NCBI GenBank assembly: GCA_016187395.1
Contig: JACPJV010000009.1
Span: forward strand, 1 to 63,114
Source: Candidatus Aenigmatarchaeota archaeon
GTDB taxonomy: Archaea; Aenigmatarchaeota; Aenigmatarchaeia; GW2011-AR5; JACRAC01
DNA: 63,114 nucleotides
Direction: 5' to 3'
Shown here in pieces: positions 46 to 56,600 of the stretch. The notes under the pieces are model-generated. The model was not told the origin of the DNA and did no database searches. It saw only the letters and a list, made by a program, of their open reading frames with translations. The number at the start of each line of letters is the position of its first letter. The first letter of the stretch is position 1. The translations under genes were made by a program, and so were the position numbers.

Positions 46-234
46 ATGGCAGTTACTCTTGAGATAATTCATAAGGATCTGGAAGAGCTTAAAAAGGAGG
101 TCGAAAACCTCAAGAAAATGATAGTCCCGGAGGAGAGGATAACGGACGACGAAAGGGCCGAAATAAGAAAAACAATAAAAGAAATGGAACGGGGAGAAGA
201 AACAAGGCTTGAAGATGTCTTTAATGATTCATAA
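46..234 (+). CDS. small helical antitoxin-like protein paired with RelE/ParE-like toxin
   Basis: 62-aa charged coiled-coil ORF. Its TAA overlaps the ATG of the next ORF (TAATG 232-236), the usual antitoxin-toxin coupling. Confidence 0.5.
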   Translation: MAVTLEIIHKDLEELKKEVENLKKMIVPEERITDDERAEIRKTIKEMERGEETRLEDVFNDS

Positions 235-497
235 TGTTCGAAATATTTATCAGCAATCAGGCAAAGAAATTTCTCAGGGGAATCGACAGAAAAATCGCGG
301 GAGAAATGACAGATGTTCTTTCGTTTCTGAAGGCAACTCCAATTCCTGTGAAGGATTTTGATGTAAGCAAACTTTCCGGTGAAGAGGATTCTTACAGAAT
401 TCGCATAGGCAGATACCGAATACTCTATAGAATCTACTGGAAAGAAAGGAAGCTCAGAATTATCAGGATAGAAACGAGAGAGGCGGCTTATGATTAG
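234..497 (+). CDS. RelE/ParE-family toxin
   Basis: 87 aa. FISNQAKKFL near the N-terminus and YRIRIGRYRILYRI..LRIIRIETREAAY at the C-terminus resemble RelE/ParE-fold toxins. Confidence 0.7.
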   Translation: MFEIFISNQAKKFLRGIDRKIAGEMTDVLSFLKATPIPVKDFDVSKLSGEEDSYRIRIGRYRILYRIYWKERKLRIIRIETREAAYD

Positions 498-498
498 C

Positions 499-1476
499 TC
501 ACATATTCCAGATCCTATCCGGCTTCTCGGCGGTTTTCAGCTGACCGAAGATTTCTATGAAGTTTTCGGTGCTGGTGAACTGGGACAGAACATTCAATGC
601 AAAGCCGCCGTAGACTGTTTTGACTTCCTGATAGAGGCGCGACCAAGTGCCTAGCGAGAATGCATTGTCCACGATTGCAATCTTCTTCACGTTCTTCAAT
701 GCATCAGCAACCTCTGCGTCAGGGAACGGCCGCATCATGCGCAGCGACAGCAGACCTACCTTTTCGTTCTGCTTTTCTCTCAAAAAACGCACTGCAAGCT
801 TTGCGTTGCTTGTTGCTGATCCATAAGATACAAAAGCGAGCTCTGCGTCATCCAGATGATATCGTTCTACTAAATGCAGGTGCGATTTGGTCTTCTTTTT
901 CCAGTCTGCAGAAAATTCGTGCATCAAAGAATGGGCATTCTTGAGCGCTTTGTGCTGCTGTGCCAAGCCTTCAGTGTCGTGCCGCTCCAGGAGCCTGTGC
1001 CTCTTGTCAATGCTCAATTCTCCGGCAGCATTCCTCACGGTCATGTGACCCACAAGCTCTACGGATTCGAATGTCTGGCGAAGAACGTCGTCAATCACGA
1101 TGCAGGAAGGCATGAGGACTTTCCTGTCCTGTCCTACCGCATATGCGGCGATCACGCTTTCAAAAGCCTCCTGTGCGCTGGCGGGAGCTATGCATAGGGA
1201 ATAATTATGAATCCTGCGGCTCGTGCAGACAACAGGCAGGCGACGGGATGACATGTCCTGGAAGCCTGGCGGATCCTTGAGAAGGACACGCTTTCCTGAA
1301 AGGCATCTGGCAACAGCCGCGCTTACGCCAGCTTCTTTCTGAAGATCTAAAAATTCAGGTTCATATGTTTTTATCTGAGGCATAATTCCTTCCCCTGGAG
1401 AAATCCCTACCAATGCATCTGCCTGGGAAAAGAGTGCTGCACTGACAGCAGCCTGAAAGCTGTTCAAAAAATGCAT
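499..1476 (-). CDS. 2-oxoacid:ferredoxin oxidoreductase alpha-subunit-like protein (divergent)
   Basis: 325 aa. The C-terminal half (VSYGSATSNAKLAVRFLREKQNEKVGLLSLRMMRPFPDAEV..KKIAIVDN) looks like POR/KOR alpha domain II. The N-terminal half is only weakly alpha-like. It follows gamma- and delta-like genes on the same strand. Confidence 0.55.
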   Translation of the reverse strand: MHFLNSFQAAVSAALFSQADALVGISPGEGIMPQIKTYEPEFLDLQKEAGVSAAVARCLSGKRVLLKDPPGFQDMSSRRLPVVCTSRRIHNYSLCIAPASAQEAFESVIAAYAVGQDRKVLMPSCIVIDDVLRQTFESVELVGHMTVRNAAGELSIDKRHRLLERHDTEGLAQQHKALKNAHSLMHEFSADWKKKTKSHLHLVERYHLDDAELAFVSYGSATSNAKLAVRFLREKQNEKVGLLSLRMMRPFPDAEVADALKNVKKIAIVDNAFSLGTWSRLYQEVKTVYGGFALNVLSQFTSTENFIEIFGQLKTAEKPDRIWNM

Positions 1477-1484
1477 AATAACAC

Positions 1485-1835
1485 CTATTTCATCTCACGC
1501 TCCTCCTTGATTGCGCCGGAGTGGCACTCCCTGACGCAGATGAGGCAGCCATCGCATTTGCTGTAGTCTATAACAAGCTTCTTCTCACCCTGGCTTATGG
1601 CATTATGAGGGCAGAACCACACAGGTTCCTTGTCCTCGCTTTTCTCCATAGCAACAGGCCTGAACGTCCTCCAGAATTTGATCTCCGGCATTTCTGCTGG
1701 CTGGACGTTATACTTTATTTCCTTTTCTGATTTCATACCGATCACGCTTGGAATCTTCGATACAGGCTTCTTGCGAGTGCCAGCTCTCCTGCGCCTTTGC
1801 CGTGCTCTCTTTTTCCTGCCTTTTTTCATCATCAA
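1485..1835 (-). CDS. POR delta-like ferredoxin with a single intact Cys motif
   Basis: CDGCLICVRECHSGAI (CxxCxxCxxxC) near the C-terminus. The upstream cluster motif is reduced to FCPHNAI. The N-terminus has a Lys/Arg-rich extension, with an alternative ATG at 1736. Confidence 0.6.
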   Translation of the reverse strand: MMMKKGRKKRARQRRRRAGTRKKPVSKIPSVIGMKSEKEIKYNVQPAEMPEIKFWRTFRPVAMEKSEDKEPVWFCPHNAISQGEKKLVIDYSKCDGCLICVRECHSGAIKEEREMK

Positions 1836-1862
1836 ACTGCAGTAATTACAACTACCAATACC

Positions 1863-1926
1863 CGTTATCTTAATTGCTCGCCTGCAGGCTCGTTATCTTA
1901 ATTGATCGCCGCAGATCGTTAGATCA
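1863..1926. repeat. short tandem direct repeat in the porG-porD spacer
   Basis: CGTTATCTTAATTG[C/A]TCGCC occurs at 1863-1882 and 1891-1910. A partial third copy, CGTTAGATCA, lies at 1917-1926. Confidence 0.7.
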
Positions 1927-2601
1927 TCTGATTTTTGGTTTCATCTTAAAGCCTGCATCCAACTCTTGCATCTTCTCTTCTGCCGGACTAAACTCTTCTA
2001 CTACGGCCTGCTTCAGAGCCTTTAACTGAACCTTCTTGAACACGGATGACAGAAAGCCCAGCAAAAACAGGTTTGGAAAGACGCGCTTTCCCCCGAATAC
2101 GTGCTCAGAGGCATCCACAGCAAAAATGCGGATTTTTCTCTTTTTTAACTGGGGATTTCTGGGCTTTTCCGTGGTGTTTATGATAAGGGCTGATCCCTCG
2201 CGCAACGTCTTTGGATCAAGAAAAGAGGGCTCAAATATGACGGTAAAATCCGCATCTTCCGGCTCTGCAGGGCCTCTTTCAAAAAATTCCTCCCTCTCCA
2301 CCTTAACAAAGGCGCTTACGCCATCTCCGATTCCATATGCATGGTCAGGCACCCAGGCGTTTGCCCGCTGACCAGAAAGCACAGAAGCCATGCCAAACAG
2401 GCGCGCTGCTGTGCGCACGCCCTGTTCAGAATGGCCGCGGAAATGGAATAACATAGCACCACAAACCACTGAAAACGTGGCGCATATCATATGTAAAGAT
2501 AGGAATATAAAACCAGGGGTTTTGGCGGATTCTTGGGGTTCGAGGATGGCATCCTGTGGGAAATTGTCAATATATTCCCATAAATTTAAATACTTTCCCA
2601 C
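1924..2601 (-). CDS. 2-oxoacid:ferredoxin oxidoreductase gamma-subunit-like protein
   Basis: HFRGHSEQGVRTAARLFG ... FTVIFEPSFLD ... LIINT resembles POR gamma. The conserved part begins near internal ATG 2454, so the first ~49 codons are doubtful. Confidence 0.6.
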   Translation of the reverse strand: MGKYLNLWEYIDNFPQDAILEPQESAKTPGFIFLSLHMICATFSVVCGAMLFHFRGHSEQGVRTAARLFGMASVLSGQRANAWVPDHAYGIGDGVSAFVKVEREEFFERGPAEPEDADFTVIFEPSFLDPKTLREGSALIINTTEKPRNPQLKKRKIRIFAVDASEHVFGGKRVFPNLFLLGFLSSVFKKVQLKALKQAVVEEFSPAEEKMQELDAGFKMKPKIR

Positions 2602-2613
2602 ATATATATCAGC

Positions 2614-2901
2614 ATGGAAACTGCAAGGTGTGATGAGCGTGGGAGGGTCGTATTGCCCAAAGAACTGAGGGACGAGTTTGGAGAGGAGTATGTCATTGTA
2701 CGGCTTCCTGGGGAGATACTATTCAAGCCCATTCCTAAAGGCGATCCGCTAAGGGCTTTACGTGAGGAGGGAAAAAAGCTTCCGAAAGACATGTCTGTGG
2801 CGGACCTGAAAAGGCAGGCGAGAGAACTTGCGCTTGAAGAAGTCCTTGAAGAAGAGGAGGAAAGAGAAGAACTGAGAAGAAAAGCAAAGGACAGGCAGTA
2901 G
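2614..2901 (+). CDS. AbrB/SpoVT-type antitoxin (VapB-like)
   Basis: N-terminal RGRVVLPKELRDEFG swapped-hairpin motif and an acidic C-terminal tail. It lies directly upstream of a PIN gene. Confidence 0.7.
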   Translation: METARCDERGRVVLPKELRDEFGEEYVIVRLPGEILFKPIPKGDPLRALREEGKKLPKDMSVADLKRQARELALEEVLEEEEEREELRRKAKDRQ

Positions 2902-2943
2902 CTCCTCAAAAACCCGACACCTGCCTGCTATAGATAGGTAGCG

Positions 2944-3327
2944 GTGCTCACTATGCCGTATGCGGATAGCGATTTTTTCCTTGCGCTGATAAAAGAGGAA
3001 GACTGGCTTGCTGAAAGAGCGGAAAAGATTCTGGAGCAATACAAAGGTCGCATATGGACATCTCACTGGGTAATTGTTGAAATACTGATGCTTGCAAAGA
3101 AACACAACTTAGACCCTGAGAACGTAATTTTCAGGATAAGGCAGTTAGCGAGAATAGAGGGGGATTTTCTCATTCTGATAGCTGTCGCGCATCTTATGAA
3201 AGAAAGGGGCATGCGCGTCTTTGACGCGCTGCACGCGCTTTCCTGCGGTCATGACAGCATCATAAGCTCTGACCGTATTTTTGACAAGATTGGTCTCGAG
3301 AGGATAAAACTGGAGGACGGGGGTTAA
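2944..3327 (+). CDS. PIN-domain toxin (VapC-like)
   Basis: 127 aa. The N-terminal acidic DSDFF segment and FDALHAL..SSD pattern are typical of the PIN fold. The ORF track starts at GTG 2944, and an ATG lies at 2953. Confidence 0.75.
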   Translation: MLTMPYADSDFFLALIKEEDWLAERAEKILEQYKGRIWTSHWVIVEILMLAKKHNLDPENVIFRIRQLARIEGDFLILIAVAHLMKERGMRVFDALHALSCGHDSIISSDRIFDKIGLERIKLEDGG

Positions 3328-3339
3328 TTTACGAACATT

Positions 3340-3615
3340 TCATGTGTTTTTTTCCAGTCCGTATCGCCCACATAATCTATTGAGCCTTTGATTGAAGGGT
3401 TGCAGATAAGCTGGAAGATCCTCACCGTGAACAGAATATAATATTCCTAATTCTGCATCATAGACAGTTTGCATCGCAGAGGTCGAAGCAGAAGGATTTC
3501 TCCGAAGGAAATCTTCTGTCCCGTCTACTATTTGCTTTACATGGCTCATGCCCTGCCATAATGCGCGTCTGCGCCTTTCTTCCTGCATTCTTTTCCAGAA
3601 ACCCATGTCATTCAC
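3340..3615 (-). CDS. hypothetical protein (second gene of an unknown two-gene module)
   Basis: 91-aa ORF abutting the stop of the upstream ORF at 3616. The track start is GTG, with an ATG at 3606. No recognisable motif. Confidence 0.4.
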   Translation of the reverse strand: MNDMGFWKRMQEERRRRALWQGMSHVKQIVDGTEDFLRRNPSASTSAMQTVYDAELGILYSVHGEDLPAYLQPFNQRLNRLCGRYGLEKNT

Positions 3616-4161
3616 CTATTCCATACTTCCTGCGGATTCTACTAGAGCATAATCATCCCTGCATTTGGAATGAACCTCTGCCAAGCGGAAGTGAGGGACG
3701 GATTCTCTGATACCATCTCCAACTATGGAATCAACCTGTTCGGAATTGTAGCCAAGCAAATACAGCCCGGCTTCTGCTGCGTCTAGATACGCCTCCCGCA
3801 TGTCGCTAGAAAACACAGCGGGATTCCCGCCCCGACCGCGCCATTCATCAACTTCAACATCAGACGCGAAAGCCGTAGCCAGAGACCCTTTAACTGCCAC
3901 ATAAAGCTTCCCCCTGTTTTCCGGATTCAGATAAACTTGGCATCTTCCCCTTTTTACAAAAGCTGCAAAAGCCCTTACACTTGAGAACTCCAAATCTTTC
4001 GGTTCTTGAGTCTTATCACGATGGTCAACAACACAGGCCACAGGCATGCTATCACCATGCAAATATCTAACAGGCCAGCCGTATCGCCTTCCTTCAGACG
4101 CTGACGCAAAACCCCTCGCAAATTCGATCCTGTCTTTTAGTGAATTGGTTTCAACGGTCAT
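3616..4161 (-). CDS. hypothetical protein
   Basis: 181-aa ORF with no competing frame and no motif I recognise. Confidence 0.5.
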   Translation of the reverse strand: MTVETNSLKDRIEFARGFASASEGRRYGWPVRYLHGDSMPVACVVDHRDKTQEPKDLEFSSVRAFAAFVKRGRCQVYLNPENRGKLYVAVKGSLATAFASDVEVDEWRGRGGNPAVFSSDMREAYLDAAEAGLYLLGYNSEQVDSIVGDGIRESVPHFRLAEVHSKCRDDYALVESAGSME

Positions 4162-4916: not shown

Positions 4917-5528
4917 ATGCACGAGCTTCCCAAGCTGCCATATTCTTATGATGCCTTAGAGCCGCACATTGATGCGCGCACGATGGAAATCCATCATACG
5001 AAGCACCACCAGACCTATGTCACAAAATTGAATGAGGCGCTTTCTAAACACAAGCAGCTTGGCGGGAAGCCTGTTGACGAATTATTGAAAAATCTGAATG
5101 CGGTGCCTGAAGACATCCGCACGGCTGTAAGGAATCATGGCGGCGGGCATTTTAATCACAGCATGTTCTGGGTGATTATGGGGCCGAAGGGCGGAGGAAG
5201 CCCCGGCGGGGCGCTGGCTGATGCGATTTCAGAAAAATTTGGCGACTTTGCAAAATTCAAGGAGCAATTTTCAAATTCTGCAGCAGGGCTATTTGGCTCG
5301 GGCTGGGCGTGGCTTGTGCTGAGGAATGGGCAATTGGCAATAGAGACTACTCCCAACCAGGACAATCCTGTTTCTTCCGGTGCCAATCCAATTATGGGCA
5401 TTGACGTGTGGGAACATGCGTACTATCTGAAATTTCAAAACAGGCGGCCTGACTACATCGCTGCGTGGTGGAATGTTGTGAACTGGCGGGAAGTAGAAGA
5501 GAATTATAAAAAGGCCCAAAAAATGTAG
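4917..5528 (+). CDS. sod: Fe/Mn superoxide dismutase
   Basis: [23 protein letters not shown] and DVWEHAYYL signatures. 203 aa. Confidence 0.95.
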
Positions 5529-5594
5529 TCATTTGCCGCCTAGAAATAGCCTCTTTCATTAATTATCGTTTACTATAGTTAACTTTAAATCCTA

Positions 5595-5819
5595 ATGTTT
5601 GAATTCATCAGGGAGGCTGTCAGGGAAAAGCTGCTCTCCACATCAGTAAAGACTCTGCCTGATGACATTGCTGAAAATGAAATAAGATGGTTTCTGCAGG
5701 AGAAGAGAAAAACAGGGCAAAATCTTGTCAGCATAATCGAAATTTCTCAAGAGCTTATGCTGCCACCCGGACAGACAGAAAGGATAATGTCCAGACTGAA
5801 GGGCGTGAAGGAGGTTTAG
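5595..5819 (+). CDS. hypothetical small protein (possible wHTH)
   Basis: 74-aa ORF with no strong motif. Confidence 0.45.
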   Translation: MFEFIREAVREKLLSTSVKTLPDDIAENEIRWFLQEKRKTGQNLVSIIEISQELMLPPGQTERIMSRLKGVKEV

Positions 5820-5820
5820 T

Positions 5821-6039
5821 ATGGCACAAATTACCCTGCCAGTCATAAAACTGGCTAACGGCGAAAGCTGGATTCCACTGCACGGTCTTAGCTCGAAAAT
5901 TGTATTCCGAGCTGAAGCAATCCGACTTGCAAAGTTTCGGGTTGCAGATCCTTCCGGGCACAGGATGGACCAGGCAGAAGCTGAAGGAAGCGCGAAATTC
6001 AGGCCGAAGACGTGGGATATATCGAAATTTCAGTTCTGA
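5821..6039 (+). CDS. hypothetical small protein, translationally coupled to 5595..5819
   Basis: GGAGGT at 5810-5815 lies 5 nt before ATG 5821, one nt after the upstream stop. Confidence 0.4.
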   Translation: MAQITLPVIKLANGESWIPLHGLSSKIVFRAEAIRLAKFRVADPSGHRMDQAEAEGSAKFRPKTWDISKFQF

Positions 6040-6165
6040 TGCCAGAAGAACTCACAAACCTTTCGCAAATCATTTTCTACAAACTTTCCGAAACAAATAT
6101 ATATCCCAAAACACATGCGAAATTCGCGGTAAGTTTAAATAAATGCGAATGCAACTAATGCAGCA

Positions 6166-6465
6166 GTGATTCCGATGGTAAACTCGTCAACGTATGCCGA
6201 TATAATCCGCAAGGATGTTTTCACGACGAAAGGCGCATACTGCGGCAAGGTTGCCGATGTGGACCTGGATATGGAAAAGTTCCGCGTGAGGTCACTGGTT
6301 GTCGATGCGGTACGCGGCTCATTCCTTTCTGATATAGTCGGAGAAAAGAGAGGAGTCATAGTACCGTTCCAGATAGTGCAGGCAATCGGGGATATTATCA
6401 TAATAAAGCACATACACCCGACAGCTGCAGAAGAGGCTAACGCAGCAGAAGCAGAAGCTGCGTGA
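6166..6465 (+). CDS. PRC-barrel domain protein
   Basis: GAYCGKVADVDLDMEKFRVRSLVVD...GVIVPFQIVQAIGDIIII resembles a PRC barrel. TTTAAATAA box at 6134-6142. Possible starts are GTG 6166 and ATG 6175. Confidence 0.6.
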   Translation: MIPMVNSSTYADIIRKDVFTTKGAYCGKVADVDLDMEKFRVRSLVVDAVRGSFLSDIVGEKRGVIVPFQIVQAIGDIIIIKHIHPTAAEEANAAEAEAA

Positions 6466-6514
6466 ACGGGAAAAATTCTAAATAATTTCTGGAAGAGGGA
6501 AAAATATCGAAGAA

Positions 6515-6758
6515 ATATAGTGAAGCAAATAAATAAACCCGATATGATCATTTGCTTCCCATACAAGGAGGAACGAAGTTCCTCCTGTACAGCAGAAGCT
6601 TCGCTTCTGCTTGTAGAGTGAACCAAGATTTTTAGTCGGCATTGGTTTCTTGGTTCACTTTATAGTGAAACCACAAATGAAACGGAACATGTATTTGTGC
6701 TTTCCCATATAGCAAACCAACTCTGGTATGCCGTTTATTTAGTTGGTTTGCTATAAAC
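6515..6758. repeat. hairpin-array repeat element (six consecutive stem-loops)
   Basis: ATATAG-hp-CATACAAG-hp(GAGGAAC/GTTCCTC)-CTGTACAG-hp(CAGAAGC/GCTTCTG)-CTTGTAG-hp-TTATAG-hp-CATATAG-hp-CTATAAAC. It fills the gap between convergent genes. Confidence 0.75.
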
Positions 6759-6777
6759 TACAATCTTTGCCCCAGGG

Positions 6778-7239
6778 TTATTGCTGATTCTGGCCATTAC
6801 CGGCTGTTTCGCAAAGTTGTTCTGCAAATCTTAGATATGCAGGGTGTGTTCTGAACGCAGTCGGCTCCCAGATTGGAAATCTTGTACCGCTGTATTCATA
6901 CGTAAGATCGAATCTTTGCACGACTTCTGTGCGGTCTTCAACAAGAACGCCGTTTTCATAACGCTGCCAATCTACGCGCTGGAATATGTAAGGATTTCCG
7001 TCGCCCTCATCGTGGATGCGAAGATAGGATTTGGGTCCATAACCCGGGTCTACGACGTAGACCTTTCCTCTTTTCAAGTCCACTATCCCCCTGATCTTCT
7101 CGCCCGGTATTTTCATGCCGTCCGATAATTCTACAGGTGCCGGCATGGCGTTCTCAAATTCTTTTTCAGGGTAAAGGCGGCCAAACAGTGCCAGACATGC
7201 GACAGCTGCACCTATTATCAATACTTTTCTTGCCTGCAT
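6778..7239 (-). CDS. secreted or membrane-anchored hypothetical protein
   Basis: 153 aa with an N-terminal hydrophobic segment (VLIIGAAVACLALF). No known motif. Confidence 0.55.
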   Translation of the reverse strand: MQARKVLIIGAAVACLALFGRLYPEKEFENAMPAPVELSDGMKIPGEKIRGIVDLKRGKVYVVDPGYGPKSYLRIHDEGDGNPYIFQRVDWQRYENGVLVEDRTEVVQRFDLTYEYSGTRFPIWEPTAFRTHPAYLRFAEQLCETAGNGQNQQ

Positions 7240-7315
7240 GGAAGAAAGGACGATGTAAAGTTTTTATTGCTACTATAAACTGATTTCTCGTTTGCCAGCT
7301 CCGCAGCCATCATCC

Positions 7316-7323
7316 TTTATAAG
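7316..7323 (+). promoter_or_regulatory. TATA-box candidate for aEF-2
   Basis: TTTATAAG about 34 nt upstream of ATG 7354, consistent with a very short leader. Confidence 0.35.
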
Positions 7324-7353
7324 TTTATTTACAAACATAAACGTTGGTATATC

Positions 7354-9525
7354 ATGGCAAAGGATAAAACAGAATTAGTGAAAGAGCTGATGGAACAGCC
7401 GGAGAAGATACGTAATATCGGAATCGCTGCGCACATCGACCATGGAAAAACCACGCTTTCAGACAGCCTGATAGCAGGCGCCGGCATGATTTCAGAGGAG
7501 CTGGCTGGAAAGCAGCTGTTCATGGACTTCACAAAGCAGGAACAGGAACGCGGAATCACTATATGGGCGGCTAATGCAAGCATGGTTCATGATTATGAAA
7601 ATGGGAATTACCTGATAAACCTCATAGACACACCGGGGCATGTGGATTTTTCCGGCGATGTCACCAGGGCAATGAGGGCAGTTGACGGAGTTATAATCCT
7701 TGTTGACGCAGTCGAGAGCGTGATGCCGCAGACAGAAACGGTAATAAGGCAGGCACTGCGCGAGCGCGTTAAGCCAGTCTTGTTTATAAACAAGGTAGAC
7801 AGGCTTATCCGCGAGCTAAAGTTCACGCCAGAGCAGATGCAGAAGCGGTTTGAAAAAATCATCTCTGACGTAAACAGGCTTATCATAAAATATGCAGAGA
7901 AAGAGTTCGCAGAAAAGTGGATAGTGAAGGTGGACGACGGTTCTGTCGCATTCGGGTCAGGCTATCGAAAATGGGCGATATCGGTTCCTGCCATGAAAAA
8001 AATGCAGATAAGCTTCAAGGACATCATAACCTATACGCAGGAAGACAGGGAAAGGGAACTGTCCAAAAAAGCGCCTGTTCACCAGATTTTGCTGAACATG
8101 GTTATCAAGCATTTGCCTAACCCGCTGGATGCGCAGAAATACAGGATTCCAAAGATATGGAAAGGCGATTTAGAATCAGGCATAGGCAAGGATATGCTTT
8201 CCATGAATTCGAAAGGGGTGCTGGCAGGCGTTGTGACCAAGGTATTGCCGGATCCGCATGCAGGAATTGTGGCTACAGCAAGGCTCTTTTCAGGCGCGAT
8301 ATCCCGCGGACAGGAGGTGCGCCTTATAGGACAACACATGACAAGGCGTATACAGCAGGTGGCGATATACAAGGGCCCGCAAAGAGAACAGATGGAAACC
8401 ATATTTGCAGGCAACATAGTGGCAATAACAGGGATACCGGAGGCATATTCAGGAGAGACTATATGCGACCCAAGCATAGAAATGCACCCTTTCGAGGCGA
8501 TAAAGCATATATTCGAGCCTGTAGTCACGAAGAGCGTAGAGCCGAAAAGCCCACAGGACTTGCAAAAGATCATAAATTTCCTGCGCCAGGTTAGCAGGGA
8601 AGACCCGATGCTGGAAATTAACATCAACGAGGAAACAGGCGAGTATCTTGTTTCTGGACTAGGCGAATTGCATATAAACGCAAAGGTAGAAAGGCCGCTT
8701 TCTGAGATGGGCATAGAAATCAAGGTGTCACCACCCATTGTCGTTTACAGGGAGACGGTGGGCGGAAGAGGCCCTGTTGCAGAGGGAGTAAGCTCAAACA
8801 GGCATAACAGGTTCTATCTAAGCGTGGAACCTCTGGAGCCTGCAGTTTTAGAGGCTATAAACGAGGGCAAGATATCAACAGAGAACGTGAAAAAGAACGT
8901 AAAGGAGGTTACAAAGCAGCTCGTAGATTACGGCATGCCGAGGGATGAGGCAAAGAATATAGTCGACATCTACAACAAAAACGTCCTCGTCGATGCAACA
9001 AAAGGAATACAGTACCTTCATGAAACGATTGAGCTTATCACAGAGGCGTTCAGGAACACGGTGAAAAAGGGTCCGCAGTCAAACGAGCCATGCGTTGGGT
9101 TGAAAGTGCTTGTAAATGACGCAAAGCTGCACGAAGATGCGATACACAGAGGACCTGCGCAGGTGCTTCCAGCTGTGAGCGACTCCATCAGGCAGAGCAT
9201 GATGAGGGCAAAGCCCCTGATACTTGAACCTATCCAGGTAATACGCATAGACGTGCCTGAGGAGATCATGGGCGCAGCTATTTCGCAGGTGCAGAACAGG
9301 AGGGGGCAGGTTATTAACATGGAAACAGACCTGGGAACTTCCATGATAACTGCAAAGATGCCTGTTTCAGAAATGTTCGGGTTTGAGGCGCAATTAAAAA
9401 GCGCAACAGGCGGAAAAGGATTCTACTCGCTGATAGACGTGAAGTTTGAAAAGCTGCCGGGAGAGCTGCAACAAAATGTCATAAGCAAAATCAGGCAGAG
9501 GAAAGGACTGGCAGAGGGGCAGTAG
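7354..9525 (+). CDS. fusA: translation elongation factor aEF-2
   Basis: AHIDHGKTTLSD G1 motif, DTPGH, NKVDR, and the diphthamide-region HEDAIHRGPAQ. 723 aa. Confidence 0.97.
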   Translation: MAKDKTELVKELMEQPEKIRNIGIAAHIDHGKTTLSDSLIAGAGMISEELAGKQLFMDFTKQEQERGITIWAANASMVHDYENGNYLINLIDTPGHVDFSGDVTRAMRAVDGVIILVDAVESVMPQTETVIRQALRERVKPVLFINKVDRLIRELKFTPEQMQKRFEKIISDVNRLIIKYAEKEFAEKWIVKVDDGSVAFGSGYRKWAISVPAMKKMQISFKDIITYTQEDRERELSKKAPVHQILLNMVIKHLPNPLDAQKYRIPKIWKGDLESGIGKDMLSMNSKGVLAGVVTKVLPDPHAGIVATARLFSGAISRGQEVRLIGQHMTRRIQQVAIYKGPQREQMETIFAGNIVAITGIPEAYSGETICDPSIEMHPFEAIKHIFEPVVTKSVEPKSPQDLQKIINFLRQVSREDPMLEININEETGEYLVSGLGELHINAKVERPLSEMGIEIKVSPPIVVYRETVGGRGPVAEGVSSNRHNRFYLSVEPLEPAVLEAINEGKISTENVKKNVKEVTKQLVDYGMPRDEAKNIVDIYNKNVLVDATKGIQYLHETIELITEAFRNTVKKGPQSNEPCVGLKVLVNDAKLHEDAIHRGPAQVLPAVSDSIRQSMMRAKPLILEPIQVIRIDVPEEIMGAAISQVQNRRGQVINMETDLGTSMITAKMPVSEMFGFEAQLKSATGGKGFYSLIDVKFEKLPGELQQNVISKIRQRKGLAEGQ
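9487..9525 (+). repeat. direct repeat copy 1 (authentic aEF-2 3' end)
   Basis: The last 12 codons plus stop (KIRQRKGLAEGQ*) recur at 10060-10098 with 34/39 identity. Confidence 0.9.
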
Positions 9526-9568
9526 AAGTGCGAAGGATAAACACCGAAGAAGTGAACCGGTGATTTTC

Positions 9569-9823
9569 ATGCCTTACGAAATTATCGTGAAAGAGCCTGC
9601 AGAAAGGAAGCTGAGAAAATTCCCGAAGGATATACAGCGCAGATTTGCAAAACGCGCGGAAAAGCTGGCGGAAAACCCGCATTCATTCGGCAAGCCTTTG
9701 AGGAATGTTCTGGCAGGCTATTGGGAAGATTACTTCGAAAGAAGATTCCGCATAATTTATACTATTGACGAAAATTCAAAAACTATTACTATAGAAGCCA
9801 TAAAGCACAAGGATGAATTCTAG
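9569..9823 (+). CDS. RelE/ParE-family toxin
   Basis: AERKLRKFPKDIQRRFAKRAEKLAENP...RFRIIYTIDENSKTITIEAIKHKDEF. GGTGA lies before ATG 9569. The track start is GTG 9560. Confidence 0.7.
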   Translation: MPYEIIVKEPAERKLRKFPKDIQRRFAKRAEKLAENPHSFGKPLRNVLAGYWEDYFERRFRIIYTIDENSKTITIEAIKHKDEF

Positions 9824-10005
9824 AGCCCGAGCTCTTTCCTCACTTCTTTCCAAGGTCTGCCCTTGGAAGTTTTGGATTCCTTGATTTGTTCCATAAGTTC
9901 CTTATCACCCAGAATTTCTATAGTTCTCTGCATACTCTCGTACTCGTCTTTGGAAATAACAACATAGCTAGTTTCATGCCTACCTTTTTCCATCAGCACA
10001 GACAT
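9820..10005 (-). CDS. Phd/YefM-family antitoxin
   Basis: VVISKDEYESMQRTIEILGDKELMEQIKES is a typical Phd/YefM core. GGTGA SD and a TTTAAAT box lie upstream on the minus strand. Confidence 0.7.
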   Translation of the reverse strand: MSVLMEKGRHETSYVVISKDEYESMQRTIEILGDKELMEQIKESKTSKGRPWKEVRKELGL

Positions 10006-10059
10006 GGCATCACCGAACTAATAAATAGGCAAACTGATTTAAATTGATTTGTATCCCGA

Positions 10060-10098
10060 AAAATCAGGCAGAGGAAGGGGCTGGCAGAAGGACAGTAA
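10060..10098 (+). repeat. direct repeat copy 2 (orphan aEF-2 3' end)
   Basis: Encodes the identical KIRQRKGLAEGQ* peptide. All 5 differences from 9487-9525 are synonymous, including TAG to TAA. Confidence 0.9.
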
Positions 10099-16883: not shown

Positions 16884-17264
16884 TCATTTCTTCCATACAG
16901 AGATTTTCTTGAGGACTTTGAGAAATCTTTGCCTGTTTTCAGGGTTCGTAAGAATGACAATGAAAACCTTGTCTTTCCCGTAGAAAATATCGATTCTTGT
17001 TCCTGTTTGGTGTATGTGCTCTCTTGTTGCCCCTGTGTAACTTTCATGCCTGTCTACGAAATCTTCAACCTTCTTTTCAACTGTATCTATATCTTCACCT
17101 TCCTTGTAATCAGAATATTTCACATCAACCATACCCCCGTAGCCAAAAGCCATTTCAAAGAATGTCTTGAGCCAGGGAAAGAAATGCTTATTTTTCCTAA
17201 CGATAAGATAGTTGAATGCATCCGCATTCCCTGCTCCAAGAATAGTTGCTTTTGGTATTTTCAT
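16884..17264 (-). CDS. hypothetical protein
   Basis: ORF trimmed to internal ATG 17264 to avoid overlapping the ndk start. No motif recognised. Confidence 0.4.
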   Translation of the reverse strand: MKIPKATILGAGNADAFNYLIVRKNKHFFPWLKTFFEMAFGYGGMVDVKYSDYKEGEDIDTVEKKVEDFVDRHESYTGATREHIHQTGTRIDIFYGKDKVFIVILTNPENRQRFLKVLKKISVWKK

Positions 17265-17316
17265 AGATAAAGTAAAACCCACAACAAATATAAACCTTGC
17301 TTTACATTCAGAGGCT

Positions 17317-17826
17317 ATGAAAGAAAGGACACTTGTCATTATCAAGCCTGACGGCGTTGAGCGCAACCTGATAGGGAAGATAATAGATTATTACGAAAGG
17401 GGAGGATTGAAGATAACTGCAATGAAGATGGTCAGGGCGGACAAGGCGCTTGTAGGCAGGCATTATCCCGAGGATGACGAGTACATGACTACGCTGGGCA
17501 AGAAGAGCGAGAAGGCAGGCGAAAAAATCAAGGACTACAAGGCGATGGGGCGCAAAATAGTAGGATGGCTGCGAACGTACATAACAAGAGGACCTGTTGT
17601 TGCGATGGTGCTTGAGGGCACAAACGCAATACAGCGCGTGCGTGAAATAACAGGCTACACAGACCCCTCTGCCGCGGAAAAAGGAACGATAAGAGGCGAT
17701 CTTGGAAATGATTCTATCCTGAAGGCAAACAAGGAGCGGCGATCTGCAGAGAACCTGATTCATGCGTCAGGCAACAGGGAAGAAGCGGAAAGGGAGATAA
17801 AACTGTGGTTTCCTGAGATGGGATGA
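17317..17826 (+). CDS. ndk: nucleoside diphosphate kinase with insertions
   Basis: ERTLVIIKPDGV, GPVVAMVLEG, TIRGDLG and NLIHASGN (active-site His). Two inserted segments relative to ~150-aa NDKs. Confidence 0.9.
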   Translation: MKERTLVIIKPDGVERNLIGKIIDYYERGGLKITAMKMVRADKALVGRHYPEDDEYMTTLGKKSEKAGEKIKDYKAMGRKIVGWLRTYITRGPVVAMVLEGTNAIQRVREITGYTDPSAAEKGTIRGDLGNDSILKANKERRSAENLIHASGNREEAEREIKLWFPEMG

Positions 17827-17835: not shown

Positions 17836-17977
17836 ATGTAGTGGTCTACATGTAATCTTCGAAAGAACTCCAATTAAAACCTCTGACTTCAGTCAGAGGA
17901 TAAAATACCGAGTTCTTTCGAGATGCTTTGCTTCAAGAAACCGCAGGCTTTAGCCTGCGGTTCATATGGAAGCAAAT
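17836..17977. repeat. nested-hairpin repeat element downstream of ndk
   Basis: ATGTAG/CTACAT hairpin, then TCGAAAGAACT[..CCTCTGAC ttca GTCAGAGG ATAAAATACCG]AGTTCTTTCGA, then TTGCTTC[..CCGCAGGC ttta GCCTGCGG..]GAAGCAA. Confidence 0.6.
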
Positions 17978-18168: not shown

Positions 18169-19887
18169 ATGCAGAATATTCGCCAGCCTATAATCGCAGT
18201 TTTGGGACACGTGGATCACGGGAAGACCACGTTTCTTGATAGAATCAGGCAGACGACTGTGGCTGCAAAGGAGCCTGGCCAGATTACGCAGGCGATAGGC
18301 GCGAGCGTGGTGCCTAAAAATGTCATTGAGAAGCTGTGCGGAAATCTGCTGGAAAAATTCAGATTTTCTGTGGAAGTGCCTGGACTGCTTTTCATAGACA
18401 CGCCAGGGCACGAGGCATTTACATCATTGCGCAGGCGCGGCGGCGCGCTGGCGGATCTGGCCGTGCTTATTGTTGATATAATGGAAGGCGTTATGCCGCA
18501 GACAGAGGAATCCCTGCGCATCCTGAAAGAAGAAAAAACGCCATTCGTCGTGGCTGTGAATAAAATTGACAGGATAAGAGGATGGCGTTCATTGGGCGAA
18601 GAGCAGCCTGATTTTGCAAAGCAGGAATTTGAGGAAAGATTCTACAAGGTGCTTGAACAAATATCAAGATTTGGATTTGCCTGCGACAAGTATGACAGGA
18701 TTCCTGATTTCAAAAAAGCCGTGGCAGCTGTGCCTATGAGCGGAAAGACAGGAGAAGGCGTGCCTGAAATAATGGCAATGCTGGTCGGCCTTTCACAGAC
18801 TTTTCTGAAGATAACAGAAGAAGGACGCGGCTTTATTCTGGAAGTAAGAGAAACAACAGGACTGGGAAAAACAGCTGATGTGATTCTTTACGACGGTAAA
18901 ATAGAAAAAGGCAGCTGGATAGCTGTCGGAGGTCCAGACCCATTTCTAACCAAAATAAAGGCTTTGTTAGTAATCAAACCTCTGAAGGAAATGCGAGCAG
19001 AGAATCATTTTTTGCAGGTAGATGAATGCGCAGCAGCCTGCGGAGTAAAAATTGCTGCACCTGAAATTGAAAGGGCAGTAGCAGGTGCCGGGATAATCGT
19101 AGGGAAGGATAAAAAAAGCGCAGAAGAATCACTGGAAGAGCTGGAAAAGGAACGAATGCAAACAGAGGTTCACAGGGAAACAGAAGGGCTTGTGGTAAAA
19201 ACTGATACAATCGGAAGTTTAGAGGCGTTGCTTAATGTTCTCAAAGACTATCCGATAAAAGAAGCGACCATAGGAGCGGTAACAAGAGGGAATATACTTC
19301 TTGCGCAGGCGAACGAAGAAGAAAAGAACAGGGTCGTGATTGCGTTCAATGCAGATACTTCAGAAGAAATGCAGGCTCTGGCAAAGAAAAGCGGTGTTGC
19401 AATAATAAAAACTGATGTCATATATCACATCATAGACGAATACGAAGATTTTGTGAAAAGACTTGCTGAAGAACTGATGGACAAACAGGTTGCAGATGCA
19501 ACAAGGCCTGCTGAAATCCATATTCTAAAAGGATACGTGTTCAGGCAGAGCCATCCTGCTATAGTGGGCTGCGAAATAAAAGGCATTCTGAAGCCCGGTT
19601 GTTCCCTGTTAAAAGAAGGCAGAGGAATAGTAGGAACTGTAAAACAAATGCAGAAGGAGGGCAAAAATGTTGAGGATGCAAAAAGCGGGGACAAGGTGGC
19701 CGTGAGCATCGAGGGACCGACAGTCGGGAGGCAGATAGAGGAAGGAGACGTTTTATACACAGATATAAGCAGCGAGGATTACAAAAAACTGCGCGAATAT
19801 GAAGAGCTGCTTACAAAAGATGAAGCGGATATCTTAGAAATAGTTGCGGAAATGAAAAGGAAATCCGACAAGATGTATGGGTTGTGA
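18169..19887 (+). CDS. infB: translation initiation factor aIF5B (IF-2)
   Basis: RQPIIAVLGHVDHGKTTFLDRIR, DTPGHEAF and NKIDR. The start is placed at the ATG just before the G domain. The track ORF starts at 18109. Confidence 0.93.
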   Translation: MQNIRQPIIAVLGHVDHGKTTFLDRIRQTTVAAKEPGQITQAIGASVVPKNVIEKLCGNLLEKFRFSVEVPGLLFIDTPGHEAFTSLRRRGGALADLAVLIVDIMEGVMPQTEESLRILKEEKTPFVVAVNKIDRIRGWRSLGEEQPDFAKQEFEERFYKVLEQISRFGFACDKYDRIPDFKKAVAAVPMSGKTGEGVPEIMAMLVGLSQTFLKITEEGRGFILEVRETTGLGKTADVILYDGKIEKGSWIAVGGPDPFLTKIKALLVIKPLKEMRAENHFLQVDECAAACGVKIAAPEIERAVAGAGIIVGKDKKSAEESLEELEKERMQTEVHRETEGLVVKTDTIGSLEALLNVLKDYPIKEATIGAVTRGNILLAQANEEEKNRVVIAFNADTSEEMQALAKKSGVAIIKTDVIYHIIDEYEDFVKRLAEELMDKQVADATRPAEIHILKGYVFRQSHPAIVGCEIKGILKPGCSLLKEGRGIVGTVKQMQKEGKNVEDAKSGDKVAVSIEGPTVGRQIEEGDVLYTDISSEDYKKLREYEELLTKDEADILEIVAEMKRKSDKMYGL

Positions 19888-19903
19888 TACAAAAGGTGAT
19901 GAT

Positions 19904-20551
19904 ATGACGAGTGGGACGTATCCGCTTTTTGATAAATTGACAGGCGACTACGCCTTCTACAGGGAACAGAGTGACTTGATGACAAAAGTTTTTCCAGAAG
20001 GACAGCGAATATTAAGCCTCGGAGATGGGTTTGGGAATGTCTCCAGAATGCTGGCTACCAGATGCAGTGTTGTCGACGTTGATATAGATAATGAGGCATG
20101 CAGATACATAAGGAAAAAGGACGGGAAAATCGCGGTCGTAAGAGGAAATGTTCACTACCTTCCTTTTGCTGATAGTGCTTTCGACGGCGCAGTATGCCCC
20201 AGCAATTTCGGAGTTTTTCAAGAACGAAAGTTTCTCTACGAAACTGCACGAGTGCTGAGGATAGGTGCGTTGCTTTCAGTAACAGGATTTAACAGGGAAA
20301 AGATGCAAGGAGTATCGGTAAAAAACATACTTCCAGAACTAGAGCGACGAGCGCGAAGAGTTTTGTCAGAAGAGGAATTATGGATATTACCGTTGTATCT
20401 GGAGGGAGTCAGAGAAAGGTTTGAGTGTATGAATTTGGAACCGTCTATAGGTGAGGTGATGTCTTTACTGAAGTCAGCTGGATTCTCTATCCAAGACACC
20501 TCTTCTTTTCACAGAGGATATAACTGGCATGCCGTGGCCGAAAGGAAGTGA
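19904..20551 (+). CDS. class I SAM-dependent methyltransferase-like protein
   Basis: ILSLGDGFGNVSRMLA (motif I-like), VVDVDIDNEA, and LPFADSAFDGAV. Moderately degenerate. Confidence 0.6.
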   Translation: MTSGTYPLFDKLTGDYAFYREQSDLMTKVFPEGQRILSLGDGFGNVSRMLATRCSVVDVDIDNEACRYIRKKDGKIAVVRGNVHYLPFADSAFDGAVCPSNFGVFQERKFLYETARVLRIGALLSVTGFNREKMQGVSVKNILPELERRARRVLSEEELWILPLYLEGVRERFECMNLEPSIGEVMSLLKSAGFSIQDTSSFHRGYNWHAVAERK

Positions 20552-20554
20552 TAA

Positions 20555-20704
20555 TGTGAAACAAGGAAATAATACCGACATGTCCTTGTTTCACATTATA
20601 CAAGCAGAACCATTCGGGTTCTGCTGTACAGCAGGAGCTCTGCTCCTGCTTGTAGTGCACAAGGAATTATCATATCCCGATTTATTCCTTGTAGCACTAT
20701 AAAA
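20555..20704. repeat. hairpin-array repeat element, copy related to 45177-45325
   Basis: 13-bp perfect stem TGTGAAACAAGGA/TCCTTGTTTCACA, then TACAAG-CAGAACC/GGTTCTG-CTGTACAG-CAGGAGC/GCTCCTG-CTTGTAG, then stem TGCACAAGGA/TCCTTGTAGCA and CTATAAAA. It starts 4 nt after a stop codon. Confidence 0.85.
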
Positions 20705-22657: not shown

Positions 22658-22746
22658 ACAGAATTATTCATTCGATTCTTTCCAGGGCAAACAAATAGGC
22701 TTTTAAATCTTGCTTACCTTGAGTCAGAAAGGTGCATGCATGTTTC

Positions 22747-22795
22747 GTGGGAAGAGCGAAGCTCTTCCACGTCCAGAAGAGCCAGCAGCTCTTCT
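22747..22795. repeat. double GC-rich hairpin module upstream of rps6e
   Basis: GGAAGAGC gaa GCTCTTCC and AGAAGAGC cagca GCTCTTCT separated by 6 nt. These are the same purine-arm/pyrimidine-arm stem type as the other repeat loci. Confidence 0.55.
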
Positions 22796-22828
22796 TAGAT
22801 CATGCAGGAAAACGTGAGGTGTGTTTCG

Positions 22829-27675: not shown

Positions 27676-27735
27676 AACTTTACATGGATGTAAAGTTTTA
27701 AATAGTTTGGGTGCCGTATGTTTGCAGTGATAATC

Positions 27736-28068: not shown

Positions 28069-28104
28069 AACCTCCTGCATAACCTCCCCTTTCAGGAGCT
28101 TTCT
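28069..28104. repeat. perfect 36-bp direct repeat, distal copy
   Basis: AACCTCCTGCATAACCTCCCCTTTCAGGAGCTTTCT is identical to 28812-28847. Confidence 0.95.
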
Positions 28105-28158: not shown

Positions 28159-28386
28159 ATGACGAACATGACTCTGGCAGTTCCTGAAGACCTGAAAGAG
28201 GCGATGGACAGGCACAAGGAAGTCAGGTGGAGCGAGATAGCAAGGCAGGCGATGTGGGAGCATGCACGAAAGCTAGAACTGATGGACAAGCTTCTTGCAA
28301 AGAGCAGGCTGACCGAGAAAGACGCAGAGGAATTGGGCCATAAAATAAAGCATGGAATTGCAAGGAGACACGGGCTGGTAAAATGA
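28159..28386 (+). CDS. VapB-like antitoxin
   Basis: MTLAVPEDLKEAMDRHKEVRWSEIARQA pattern. 4-nt ATGA overlap with the PIN gene. Confidence 0.6.
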   Translation: MTNMTLAVPEDLKEAMDRHKEVRWSEIARQAMWEHARKLELMDKLLAKSRLTEKDAEELGHKIKHGIARRHGLVK

Positions 28387-28805
28387 AAATCGTGGTGGAT
28401 ACGAACAGAATAATAGCAGCTTTAGTCAAAGACAGCACAACGCGGGAAATCCTGTTCGACAGAAATTTTGAGTTTGTAACACCAGACCATACTATAAAGG
28501 AAGTATACGAGCATAAAGACGAATTGAAGGTCAAAACAAATCTCAGCAATGAAGAATTTGACATCCTCATGGCATTTATTTTCGAGCGCATTGAGATTAT
28601 CCCAGAATCAGATTACAGGGATTTTATGGAAGAATGCAGGAATGATATAAGTGATCCGGATGATGTGCCGATTCTTGCTGCGGCTGTCGCCATCAAAACC
28701 GATGGCATATGGGCGCATGACCCTCATTTCAGAGAACAAAACAAGATAAAGGTATTTACGAATATAGACATGCTGAGATTCAGTGGCCGAATGAAATCAG
28801 GTTGA
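28383..28805 (+). CDS. PIN-domain toxin
   Basis: KIVVDTNRIIAAL ... DPDDVPILAAAVA ... DGIWAHDPHF, the acidic residues of the PIN fold. Confidence 0.75.
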   Translation: MKIVVDTNRIIAALVKDSTTREILFDRNFEFVTPDHTIKEVYEHKDELKVKTNLSNEEFDILMAFIFERIEIIPESDYRDFMEECRNDISDPDDVPILAAAVAIKTDGIWAHDPHFREQNKIKVFTNIDMLRFSGRMKSG

Positions 28806-29105
28806 TTACTTAACCTCCTGCATAACCTCCCCTTTCAGGAGCTTTCTCTGGAGGCCCAGGATGAGAAGCTCTGCATCATTATCGCTATAGCCCAACTTTT
28901 TCAGGATCTTTATTCCTTCCGGCAATATTTTGGCGGATACGTTCTTCGACAGCTGGGGATCAAAGGAGAAGAAAGTGGCTTCGAAAGGTATTTTTTCCTC
29001 CAGTTGCATTTCACCGCGCATGGTTATGACGTTGTTTCCATAAGGCGCGAAGCCCTTGACGTAAACGGCGAAATCAGGGACAGGCATGATATCAGCTGAA
29101 ATCAT
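28806..29105 (-). CDS. hypothetical protein whose 3' end is the cassette target
   Basis: 99-aa ORF. Its last 14 codons include repeat copy 28812-28847. Confidence 0.5.
   Translation of the reverse strand: MISADIMPVPDFAVYVKGFAPYGNNVITMRGEMQLEEKIPFEATFFSFDPQLSKNVSAKILPEGIKILKKLGYSDNDAELLILGLQRKLLKGEVMQEVK
28812..28847. repeat. perfect 36-bp direct repeat, gene-proximal copy
   Basis: Identical to 28069-28104. On the minus strand it encodes RKLLKGEVMQEV of ORF 28806..29105. Confidence 0.95.
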
Positions 29106-29984: not shown

Positions 29985-30188
29985 CCACCGCCTACAATGC
30001 GAATCGAAGATTCGCATGTACAGAAGGAATCTTTGATTCCTTCTTGTAAAGGCGGTGGTTTCACAAGGTCTTCAGCACAAGGAGAAGCGAGCTTCTCCTG
30101 TGCAGGAGGAACTTCGTTCCTCCTTGCATGCCAAAGAAGTTCGGTATCTTATCCTCTGCCTAAAGGCAGAGGGTTTAGAACTTCTTTG
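29985..30188. repeat. hairpin-array repeat element between rnp3 and rnp2
   Basis: CCACCGCC-TACAA-hp-TGTACAG-hp-CTTGTA-aa-GGCGGTGG, then CACAAG-hp-CTGTGCAG-hp-CTTGCA, then nested CAAAGAAGTT[CGGTATCTTAT CCTCTGCC taaa GGCAGAGG]AACTTCTTTG. Confidence 0.7.
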
Positions 30189-56525: not shown

Positions 56526-56534
56526 ATGCACGTT

Positions 56535-56600
56535 TGTGAGCAGGAGCAAAGCTCCTGCTACACAGCAAGAGCTTCGCTCTTGCTTGTGCCGCAGCACAAG
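56535..56600. repeat. triple-hairpin repeat module inside the operon
   Basis: TGTGAGCAGGAGC aaa GCTCCTGCT(A)CACA, GCAAGAGC ttcg CTCTTGC and TTGTGC cgca GCACAA. Same stem types as the other loci. Confidence 0.55.

Follow-up and report, generated by a model that had tools for sequence, protein, structure and literature searches.

At positions 6515-6758 of a 63,114-nucleotide stretch of DNA from a Candidatus Aenigmatarchaeota archaeon (the whole stretch is called the window below), six hairpins follow each other, separated by TA-rich linkers. A preliminary description, made from the sequence alone, read this array as a six-hairpin version of a repeat, with selection acting on a fold in RNA or in cruciform DNA. 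The question is whether the array is one RNA gene or a piece of repetitive DNA, and what keeps its hairpins paired.

The genes of the window include those for aEF2, aEF1A, aIF5B, aIF2-gamma, S6e and RNase P proteins. The proteins nearest to the window aEF2 were from Candidatus Aenigmatarchaeota (top identity, 81%), and groundwater metagenomes contained the window DNA. Exact-protein look-ups of window proteins found no record, a tRNA/tmRNA scan found none, and a phage megablast of positions 5000-9000 gave no match. The array is flanked by two convergent genes, one encoding a PRC-barrel protein (6166-6465, plus strand), the other a small protein predicted to be membrane-bound or secreted (6778-7239, minus strand).

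Architecture of the array and its modules

All the linkers, stems and loops quoted in the preliminary description were confirmed at their positions. The array starts with ATATAG, followed by the stem of the first hairpin (GAAGCAAAT, 19 nt, ATTTGCTTC) and by CCATACAAG. Its centre reads GAGGAAC gaa GTTCCTC, CTGTACAG, CAGAAGC ttc GCTTCTG and CTTGTAG; then come AGTGAACCAAGA, 19 nt, TCTTGGTTCACT and TTATAG, followed by TGAAACCACAAAT, 14 nt, ATTTGTGCTTTCC and CATATAG, and the array ends with CAAACCAACT, 18 nt, AGTTGGTTTG and CTATAAAC. A hairpin scan recovered all six perfect stems (Table 1). The predicted fold of a 261-nt stretch had an energy of -92.3 kcal/mol, compared with -52.0 +/- 4.4 kcal/mol for shuffled sequences (z = -9.2), and none of 200 shuffles was as good.

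The hairpins are of two types. The short hairpin has a 9-bp stem (AG plus 7 variable bp on one side, 7 plus CT on the other), i.e. about seven variable but perfectly complementary bp above a conserved AG/CT foot, with a purine-rich 5' arm and a loop that is 3 nt long in about 22 of 24 cases and has no conserved sequence. It was only ever found as an inverted pair sharing 2 nt, which forms a 54-bp core: two inverted TAC-(bulged A)-AG-N7-loop-N7-CT-GTA hairpins that overlap by two bases (TA, CA or TG). In the 6.5-kb array, both core units are lengthened by TAC/GTA past one bulged base, and the central TA of TGTACA is common to both. With a covariance model of the core (R1), this copy scored 68-71 bits on either strand, and metagenome contigs ended at its borders, at 6561/6562 and 6615.

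The long hairpin has a variable stem of 9-17 bp and a loop of 14-19 nt, which, when oriented, reads YATRTCCG(G)-WTTATTT (also summarised as ATRYCSG..TTTATTT). The hairpin is preceded by TATA(T)G (5') and followed by (C)ACTATAA (3'), with TATAG/CTATAA as its bounds. The CCGRYAT-like core that the loops had been said to share is real, and is the reverse complement of the oriented motif. Loops and flanks were conserved across contigs of 29-49% GC. The four long hairpins of the 6.5-kb array are in mixed orientation; on the minus strand, the first one reads TATGG-stem-gATCATATCgggTTTATTT-stem-ACTATAT. Metagenome contigs began at 6660/6661, at hp5, and contig ends were found at 6757, at hp6.

A further module (X), present twice in the window, is asymmetric; its lower stem covaries, its internal loop is GGTRTYTYAT and its upper hairpin CCTCTGNC. 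In the archaeal contig L001 (446-556), the tip of the upper hairpin of module X is replaced by a core doublet. Other, unrelated intergenic hairpins were also found in the window, e.g. at 17939-17962 and 27676-27697. The stretch 6515-6758 is a mosaic of repeat modules, not one RNA gene.

Table 1. Coordinates of the stems, repeat modules and related features (window positions, unless a contig is named)
Feature	Position	Strand	Description
Perfect stem, hp1	6522-6558		9 bp, 19-nt loop; hairpin scan
Perfect stem, short hairpin 1	6566-6586		9 bp, loop GAA; hairpin scan
Perfect stem, short hairpin 2	6591-6611		9 bp, loop TTC; hairpin scan
Perfect stem, hp4	6617-6659		12 bp; hairpin scan
Perfect stem, hp5	6672-6699		7 bp; reaches 6667-6704 past one C.C mismatch
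Perfect stem, hp6	6708-6755		15 bp; hairpin scan
Long-hairpin module beta (hp1)	6515-6563	-	Linker ATATAG, stem GAAGCAAAT/ATTTGCTTC, 19-nt loop
Core, 54 bp	6562-6615	.	Two short hairpin units in inverted orientation
Core unit 1	6566-6586		AGGAGGAAC gaa GTTCCTCCT
Core unit 2	6591-6611		AGCAGAAGC ttc GCTTCTGCT
Long hairpin hp4	6614-6665	-	GTAG + AGTGAACCAAGA/TCTTGGTTCACT (12 bp); minus-strand loop carries CCAATGCCG
Long hairpin hp5	6661-6712	-	TATAG-TGAAACCACAAAT ... ATTTGTGCTTTCC-CATATAG; 7+4 bp stem with C.C mismatch
Long hairpin hp6	6706-6758	+	TATAGCAAACCAACT/AGTTGGTTTGCTATA (15 bp), loop ctggTATGCCGTTTATTT
Module X, second copy	17863-17925	-	
Element B, complete, 152 bp	20552-20703	+	beta(-) - core - beta(+)
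Core copy F, degenerate	22743-22803	+	Directly upstream of S6e gene
Core copy C1	29985-30058	+	Occupies loop of outer hairpin CCACCGCC/GGCGGTGG (nested); Rpp30-Pop5 spacer
Core copy C2	30073-30132	-	91% identical to reverse complement of 6.5-kb core
Module X	30132-30188	+	Lower stem, conserved internal loop GGTATCTTAT, upper hairpin CCTCTGCC
Element D	45177-45328	-	Inverted copy of B, 93% identity over 152 nt
Core copy E	56532-56601	+	TGTGAG..CTACACAG..CTTGTG plus one extra hairpin
Tandem short hairpins	L013 12190-12329, 567-616; L008 8010-8057, 13805-13851		
Intein-bearing relatives	L018 3094-5562; L019 4488-6965; P0065, P0074, P0089 and others		

Copies, genomic positions and insertion polymorphism

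The modules of the array recurred at five or more further sites of the window and also on further Aenigmatarchaeota contigs. The pattern TACAAG..CTGTACAG..CTTGTA had two matches in the window and a stricter linker pattern had five, the expectation being 0.00 for each. The R1 model found at least seven core loci in the 63 kb, with scores of 40-71 bits, near 6.5, 20.6, 22.7, 30.0 (two copies), 45.2 and 56.5 kb. The scores of the most symmetric copies (A, at 6.5 kb, B and C2) were near-equal on the two strands. The copies at 20.6 and 45.2 kb, which the preliminary description had recognised, are homologous to the array; it had missed the two cores at 29985-30132 and those at 56532-56601 and 22743-22803. 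Elements B and D (20.6 and 45.2 kb) are dyad-symmetric 152-bp elements with inverted ends, at unrelated loci, and are, as judged by their sequences, recent inverted duplicates. They bracket 24.5 kb including essential genes (aIF2-gamma, S6e, RNase P proteins), and a large inversion between strains could arise through the pair.

Outside the window, the core was found in an archaeal MAG contig (L001, two copies), in a contig of 29% GC (L004/L005) and in contigs of 49% GC (L008-L010), whose aEF2 is 77% identical to that of the window. None was present in 126 kb from seven other Aenigmatarchaeota loci, and the distribution of the core across relatives is patchy. Scans of viral contigs with the core and long-hairpin patterns found none. 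Two hits of a metagenome pattern scan (L002 and L003) proved to be chance matches in high-GC coding DNA. Other hairpins, tandem and short, with purine-rich 5' arms and loops of 3-4 nt, were observed directly after the aEF2, aEF1A and RpoA'' genes of Aenigmatarchaeota contigs. Those of L013 and L008 have other linkers (e.g. GAGC, AGGCC), and the core model detected none of them; they may be diverged relatives of the core family.

All six window loci touched at least one gene 3' end, and none of the six lay between divergent genes. The units stand where genes end, and several have taken the place of the final codons, stop codon included. Element B starts right after the TGA stop of a methyltransferase gene (19877-20551), the terminal TAATGTGAAAC of element D provides the TAA stop of an aldehyde dehydrogenase gene (45326-46858, minus strand), and copy E starts 10 nt past the stop codon of gene 56166-56525. 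In L008, the first hairpin carries the aEF2 stop in its loop, and the NDK stop falls within a weak core match. The rule is not absolute, since one L008 array lies between divergent genes, beside tRNA-end fragments. No intrinsic terminator (G+C-rich hairpin plus T run) was found in 6515-6758, the sole match in 6000-7500 being at 7046-7064. The long hairpins have a TATAAA-like 3' flank, but the idea that it donates a promoter was rejected, as its distance from the start codons does not suit this at D and B. The NDK gene of the window (17212-17826) encodes a 204-aa product with the Pfam NDK domain in two stretches (the best, residues 119-202), which suggests that it carries an insertion or an N-terminal extension compared with the NDKs of L008 and L011 (174-180 aa).

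In the source metagenome, the summed contig depth was 57-3878 over 6510-6755, as compared with 4-12 in the flanks, and the modules stood at 10-700 times the flank depth; these values sum all contigs at >= 80-90% likeness and may pool several organisms. Contig ends clustered at 6556/6561, 6615, 6660/6661, 6695 and 6757, which are module boundaries, and many contigs passed from the array into unrelated sequence. A similar depth and contig-end pattern was observed for B and C. One contig, in which two long hairpins are joined by TA, skipped exactly 20599-20652, and another, joining CCACCGCC-TA-AAGGCGGTGG, skipped exactly 29993-30046. These core-less contigs share TA at the junction and, their matching flanks being short, are probably paralogous loci. 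The core is a separable unit, able to sit in the loop of another hairpin.

A presence/absence difference at one and the same locus was found in a single case, which concerns relatives (L009 versus L008 and L010) and not the window organism. L008 and L009, which encode the same aEF2, differ over about 1.3 kb by a 113-bp insert in L009 and by nothing else; L010, like L008, has no such insert. The insert, CA-AAAATGAATTTGAC...core...GTCAAATTCATTTT-CA, has perfect 14-bp inverted ends and CA..CA flanks, and folds into an outer 15-bp stem around three hairpins. It lies at the rpoA'' end, where it changes the C-terminus of RpoA'' from KMKASQKK to KMKASQK and supplies the stop codon. A precise palindrome deletion in L008 and L010 would be a less likely source of this difference than an insertion in L009. 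The 2-bp direct repeats found beside elements (CA..CA, TA..TA, TG) may be a target-site duplication, but are just as readable as portions of extended hairpins. The units are apparently INTERSPERSED and mobile. A non-exhaustive scan of about 45 window ORFs and 8 L005 ORFs brought up no gene for a transposase, an HUH or RAYT protein or a recombinase, which is weak negative evidence since these ORFs represent only part of the genome. Apparent indels in L011 and L012 were runs of N.

We also noted that L008 (1-640) and L009 (1-470), which are near-identical strains, are wholly different upstream of the rpoH operon, where L009 has tRNA genes with introns, while in L008 two copies of a tRNA 3'-end fragment (TCGAATCCCGTCGGGCCCA, AATCCCGTCGGGCCCA) flank a hairpin array. 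This suggests an integration or a rearrangement at a tRNA gene.

Pairing and covariation

Alignment A3, of 13 core copies, served for the covariation test. In the two short stems, 100% and 98% of the cells were paired, and 15 of the 18 stem pairs changed on both sides, with 55-61 double-sided changes. The covariation score was 0.60-0.65, compared with 0.22 in shuffles (0/500 reached the score) and 0.03-0.15 with slid partners. The pairing of the core is therefore maintained, and the claim that the stems differ and yet remain complementary holds beyond both controls; covariation support, on whose absence the preliminary description would have been given up, was clearly present.

The linkers had been described as conserved single-stranded parts. 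They are indeed conserved, but their TAC/GTA portions were paired in 100% of the cells, the 5' TAC with the middle GTA and the middle TAC with the 3' GTA, and these pairs covary from A-U to G-C (alignment pairs 6-8/33-35 and 34-36/61-63). The stem TACA/TGTA that would close a 3-way or 4-way junction (pairs 6-9 with 60-63), as had been proposed, showed one-sided variation and was kept paired only via G-U. This argues against such a junction; the linkers extend the short hairpins by 3 bp instead.

Only 2 of about 234 stem cells were G-U. RNA with so much compensated change normally has many wobble pairs, and pairing that is restricted to Watson-Crick pairs means that both strands can fold, as in DNA palindromes. 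Because of this near-exclusive Watson-Crick pairing, the mostly 3-nt loops, the two-fold symmetry and the patchy distribution, we favour DNA palindromes over an RNA-specific fold. Thus, where selection on structure in RNA or in cruciform DNA had been left as a choice, the pairing is kept and a DNA hairpin or cruciform fits it better.

Several stem variants were shared between loci or organisms: CAGAACC between B and L001, GAGAAGC between C2 and L001, GCGAATC between L001 and L008 (with a shorter CGAATC in C1), and GAGGAAC between A, C2 and one metagenome fragment. Many of the compensated cells therefore represent spread copies and not independent events in place.

For the long hairpins, covariation rests on pairwise comparisons. 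Those of L005 (29% GC) and L006 (40% GC) have the same flanks and loop, with two compensated stem changes. Elements B and D differ at 10 of 152 positions, mostly in loops and linkers, with one compensated change from C-G to T-A and one G.T; the placement of these changes was weakly significant (binomial P ~0.02). RNAalifold found no structure in a MAFFT alignment of the long hairpins, because their stem registers differ.

Nature and origin of the repeats

We think it likely that the locus is a BIME-like mosaic of non-autonomous palindromic mobile DNA units, carried by some Aenigmatarchaeota (DPANN). It is, accordingly, not one structured RNA locus, but a cluster drawn from a high-copy, modular, insertion-polymorphic family. 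Repetition, modularity and structural conservation are demonstrated, as is the insertion polymorphism in one relative, and selection for hairpin formation at the DNA level is the best reading of the pairing. By analogy with IS200/IS605, REP-RAYT and attC, we propose that the units spread as DNA and that the enzyme mobilising them would recognise not a fixed sequence but a folded structure, either a hairpin or a cruciform. Such a recognition would explain that the stems drift by compensated changes only, with feet, bulges, loops and linkers being fixed. After insertion, the units would be transcribed together with their neighbouring genes, as hairpins of the 3'-UTR or between cistrons, and may have the secondary effect of stabilising transcripts or of terminating them, as REP/BIME do; by this analogy, a secondary role as transcribed 3'-end hairpins is plausible.

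A more specific version of this proposal, which we put forward tentatively and consider somewhat unlikely, is that an as yet undescribed archaeal system, equivalent in DPANN to REP-RAYT or IS200/IS605, moves hairpin DNA and has the units as its substrates. Its enzyme would recognise a bulged base within a folded hairpin. Pairing with the central dinucleotide of the element would determine which target dinucleotide (TA, CA or TG) is used, and columns 7, 34 and 63 would covary three ways for this reason. Stop codons of essential genes (aEF2, RpoA'', NDK) would be the preferred sites of grafting, where the elements would supply new C-termini, stop codons and 3'-end hairpins.

Could the arrays be primarily cis-acting structured RNA, i.e. 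multi-hairpin 3'-UTR or intercistronic elements that would shield mRNA 3' ends, end transcription or guide processing, with RNA folding as the target of selection? Their position after stop codons or in spacers of highly expressed operons (aEF2-aEF1A, aEF1A-S10, NDK-aIF5B, RpoA''-L30e, Rpp30-Pop5) and the lack of window copies between divergent genes (0/6) would be explained in this way, as would the very stable predicted fold and the strong covariation; mismatched stems were few, and the few stem cells that are not Watson-Crick pairs are G.T on the sense strand. However, two G-U in about 234 cells, despite 55-61 double-sided changes, is not what an RNA would lead one to expect, and the short loops, about 22 of 24 of them 3 nt long, are unconserved. 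Because of the two-fold symmetry, one transcript would contain the loop motif both sense and antisense; both module X and the long hairpins are found either way round with respect to the flanking genes; and one L008 array lies between divergent genes. There is no hairpin-plus-T-run terminator within the element, and no Rfam family was matched, at the gathering threshold in the whole window or credibly by E-value over 6400-6850 (best, 21.9 bits as against a gathering score of 45). Seven related loci have no cores, and insertion is polymorphic. We therefore judge a primary RNA function to be improbable; as a secondary, co-opted role, it is compatible with a mobile family. H/ACA, C/D-box and K-turn sRNAs, SECIS, CRISPR, ORB boxes of origins and attC were rejected on account of the missing boxes and pockets, the dispersed copies and the perfect stems.

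A double-stranded palindrome might also be a chromosomal site for protein binding or cruciform formation, recognised by a nucleoid protein, a topoisomerase or a recombination protein and duplicated by recombination, not transposition. Watson-Crick-only palindromes with 3-nt centres and dyad symmetry would suit such a site, the conserved loop and linker motifs could be protein contacts, and B and D do form a 24.5-kb inverted pair. Nevertheless, a dimeric sequence-specific binder would not tolerate half-sites that vary freely in their stems, and the 113-bp insert with its own inverted ends, the nested cores, the high copy number and the contig breaks fit mobile DNA better, so that we consider this explanation very improbable. 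That unrelated palindromes or ordinary terminator hairpins were brought together by chance, with neither family nor covariation, deserves hardly any credit: unrelated intergenic hairpins do exist in the window, but this reading is refuted by the expectation of 0.00 for the linker patterns, the model scores of 40-71 bits at seven window loci, the conservation of loops and flanks across contigs of 29-49% GC, and the shuffles, none of 500 of which exceeded the observed covariation.

The best fit for the family is thus a REP/BIME- or MITE-like set of palindromic mobile repeats in an unexpected host group. Like the REP/BIME of Enterobacteria and Pseudomonas, which are mobilised by RAYT/TnpA-REP, it consists of short, extragenic palindromic units in high copy number, which form mosaics of alternating orientation with short conserved linkers, after genes and between cistrons, and for which hairpin formation appears to weigh more than the strand. 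A GTAG immediately precedes the long hairpin where it joins the core (CTTGTAG), though only at such junctions (6610-6616 and 20648-20654), the sequence being TATAG or TATG elsewhere. The differences are that the host is archaeal (DPANN), that there are two unit classes plus nested forms, that stems vary and loops and linkers are conserved, whereas in REPs the stem sequence itself is conserved, that most units are tagged with TATAG instead of GTAG, that some overlap stop codons, and that no RAYT gene was found within the window. Unlike in REPINs, the two short units have different stems, each self-complementary, and form no joint long hairpin.

MITEs such as the Correia/NEMIS elements of Neisseria, the palindromic elements of Rickettsia and SM1-SM4 of Sulfolobus are non-coding, 50-150 bp long and have inverted ends; the core and element units (54-152 bp, against an upper limit of about 500 bp for MITEs) are also non-coding and present in multiple copies. 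Strain-polymorphic insertion is a further likeness, and the possible 2-bp (TA-type) flanking repeat resembles that of MITEs derived from IS630/Tc1. Rickettsia palindromic elements also change the C-terminus of proteins by insertion at gene ends, as in the present family (PMC10969869). On the other hand, no parent insertion sequence was found among the about 45 window and 8 L005 ORFs, the inverted ends vary between copies (AAAATGAATTTGAC, CCACCGCC, long hairpins), the conserved parts are the internal modules and not the ends, and units go down to 54 bp. The arms of classical MITEs and REPs are conserved in sequence, which makes the variable stems unusual. The ends of IS200/IS605 and the attC sites of integrons, recombination substrates that are recognised as folded single-stranded DNA, also combine a conserved structure, with a conserved bulged base, foot and flanks, with variable stem sequences; the covariation of the flanking dinucleotides with the internal one is loosely similar to the pairing of guide and cleavage site in IS608. 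Yet no Y1 transposase or integrase was found in the ORFs scanned, the units are inverted pairs on both strands and not like-oriented left and right ends, and there are neither R/L boxes nor gene cassettes.

A limited literature search found no description of the core/long-hairpin family, and full-text searching turned up no paper that connects Aenigmatarchaeota with MITEs. In a 2024 review, the archaeal hosts of MITEs are given only as Sulfolobus, Halobacterium, Haloquadratum, Desulfurococcus and 'several other' genomes, without naming DPANN archaea (PMC10969869). For bacteria, surveys of REPs report BIME clusters as well as units tagged with GTAG or CGTC (PMC3733652); for archaea, generic palindromes resembling REPs are reported in a tool paper of 2025 (PMC12306157). 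DPANN archaea have small, streamlined genomes. The family would add a new case to the structure-dependent mobile DNA of archaea. Its repeats explain the fragmented assembly of these genomes, in which contigs break at the repeats, and its units offer markers for strain typing. It also invites caution, as covariation in paralogous palindromes is no proof of a functional RNA.

Other features that point to insertion were also noted. Inteins with LAGLIDADG domains are present in RpoA'' and aEF2 of several relatives (proteins of about 1200 aa; Table 1) and absent from the window genes. Between aEF2 and aEF1A, the window contains a ParE-type toxin gene (9560-9823, plus strand) and, on the opposite strand, a small ORF (9820-10005) that is Phd/YefM-like by eye. 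A 38-bp direct repeat with 89% identity (9487-9524 and 10060-10097), which duplicates the 3' end of the aEF2 gene, brackets this pair, and the whole (9487-10097) looks like a toxin-antitoxin cassette inserted with target duplication. A PIN-domain toxin gene (28383-28805), with a small ORF upstream (28159-28386), is bracketed by a perfect 36-bp direct repeat (28069-28104 and 28812-28847) and forms a second toxin-antitoxin cassette, the flanking target-length duplication being about 36-38 bp in the two.
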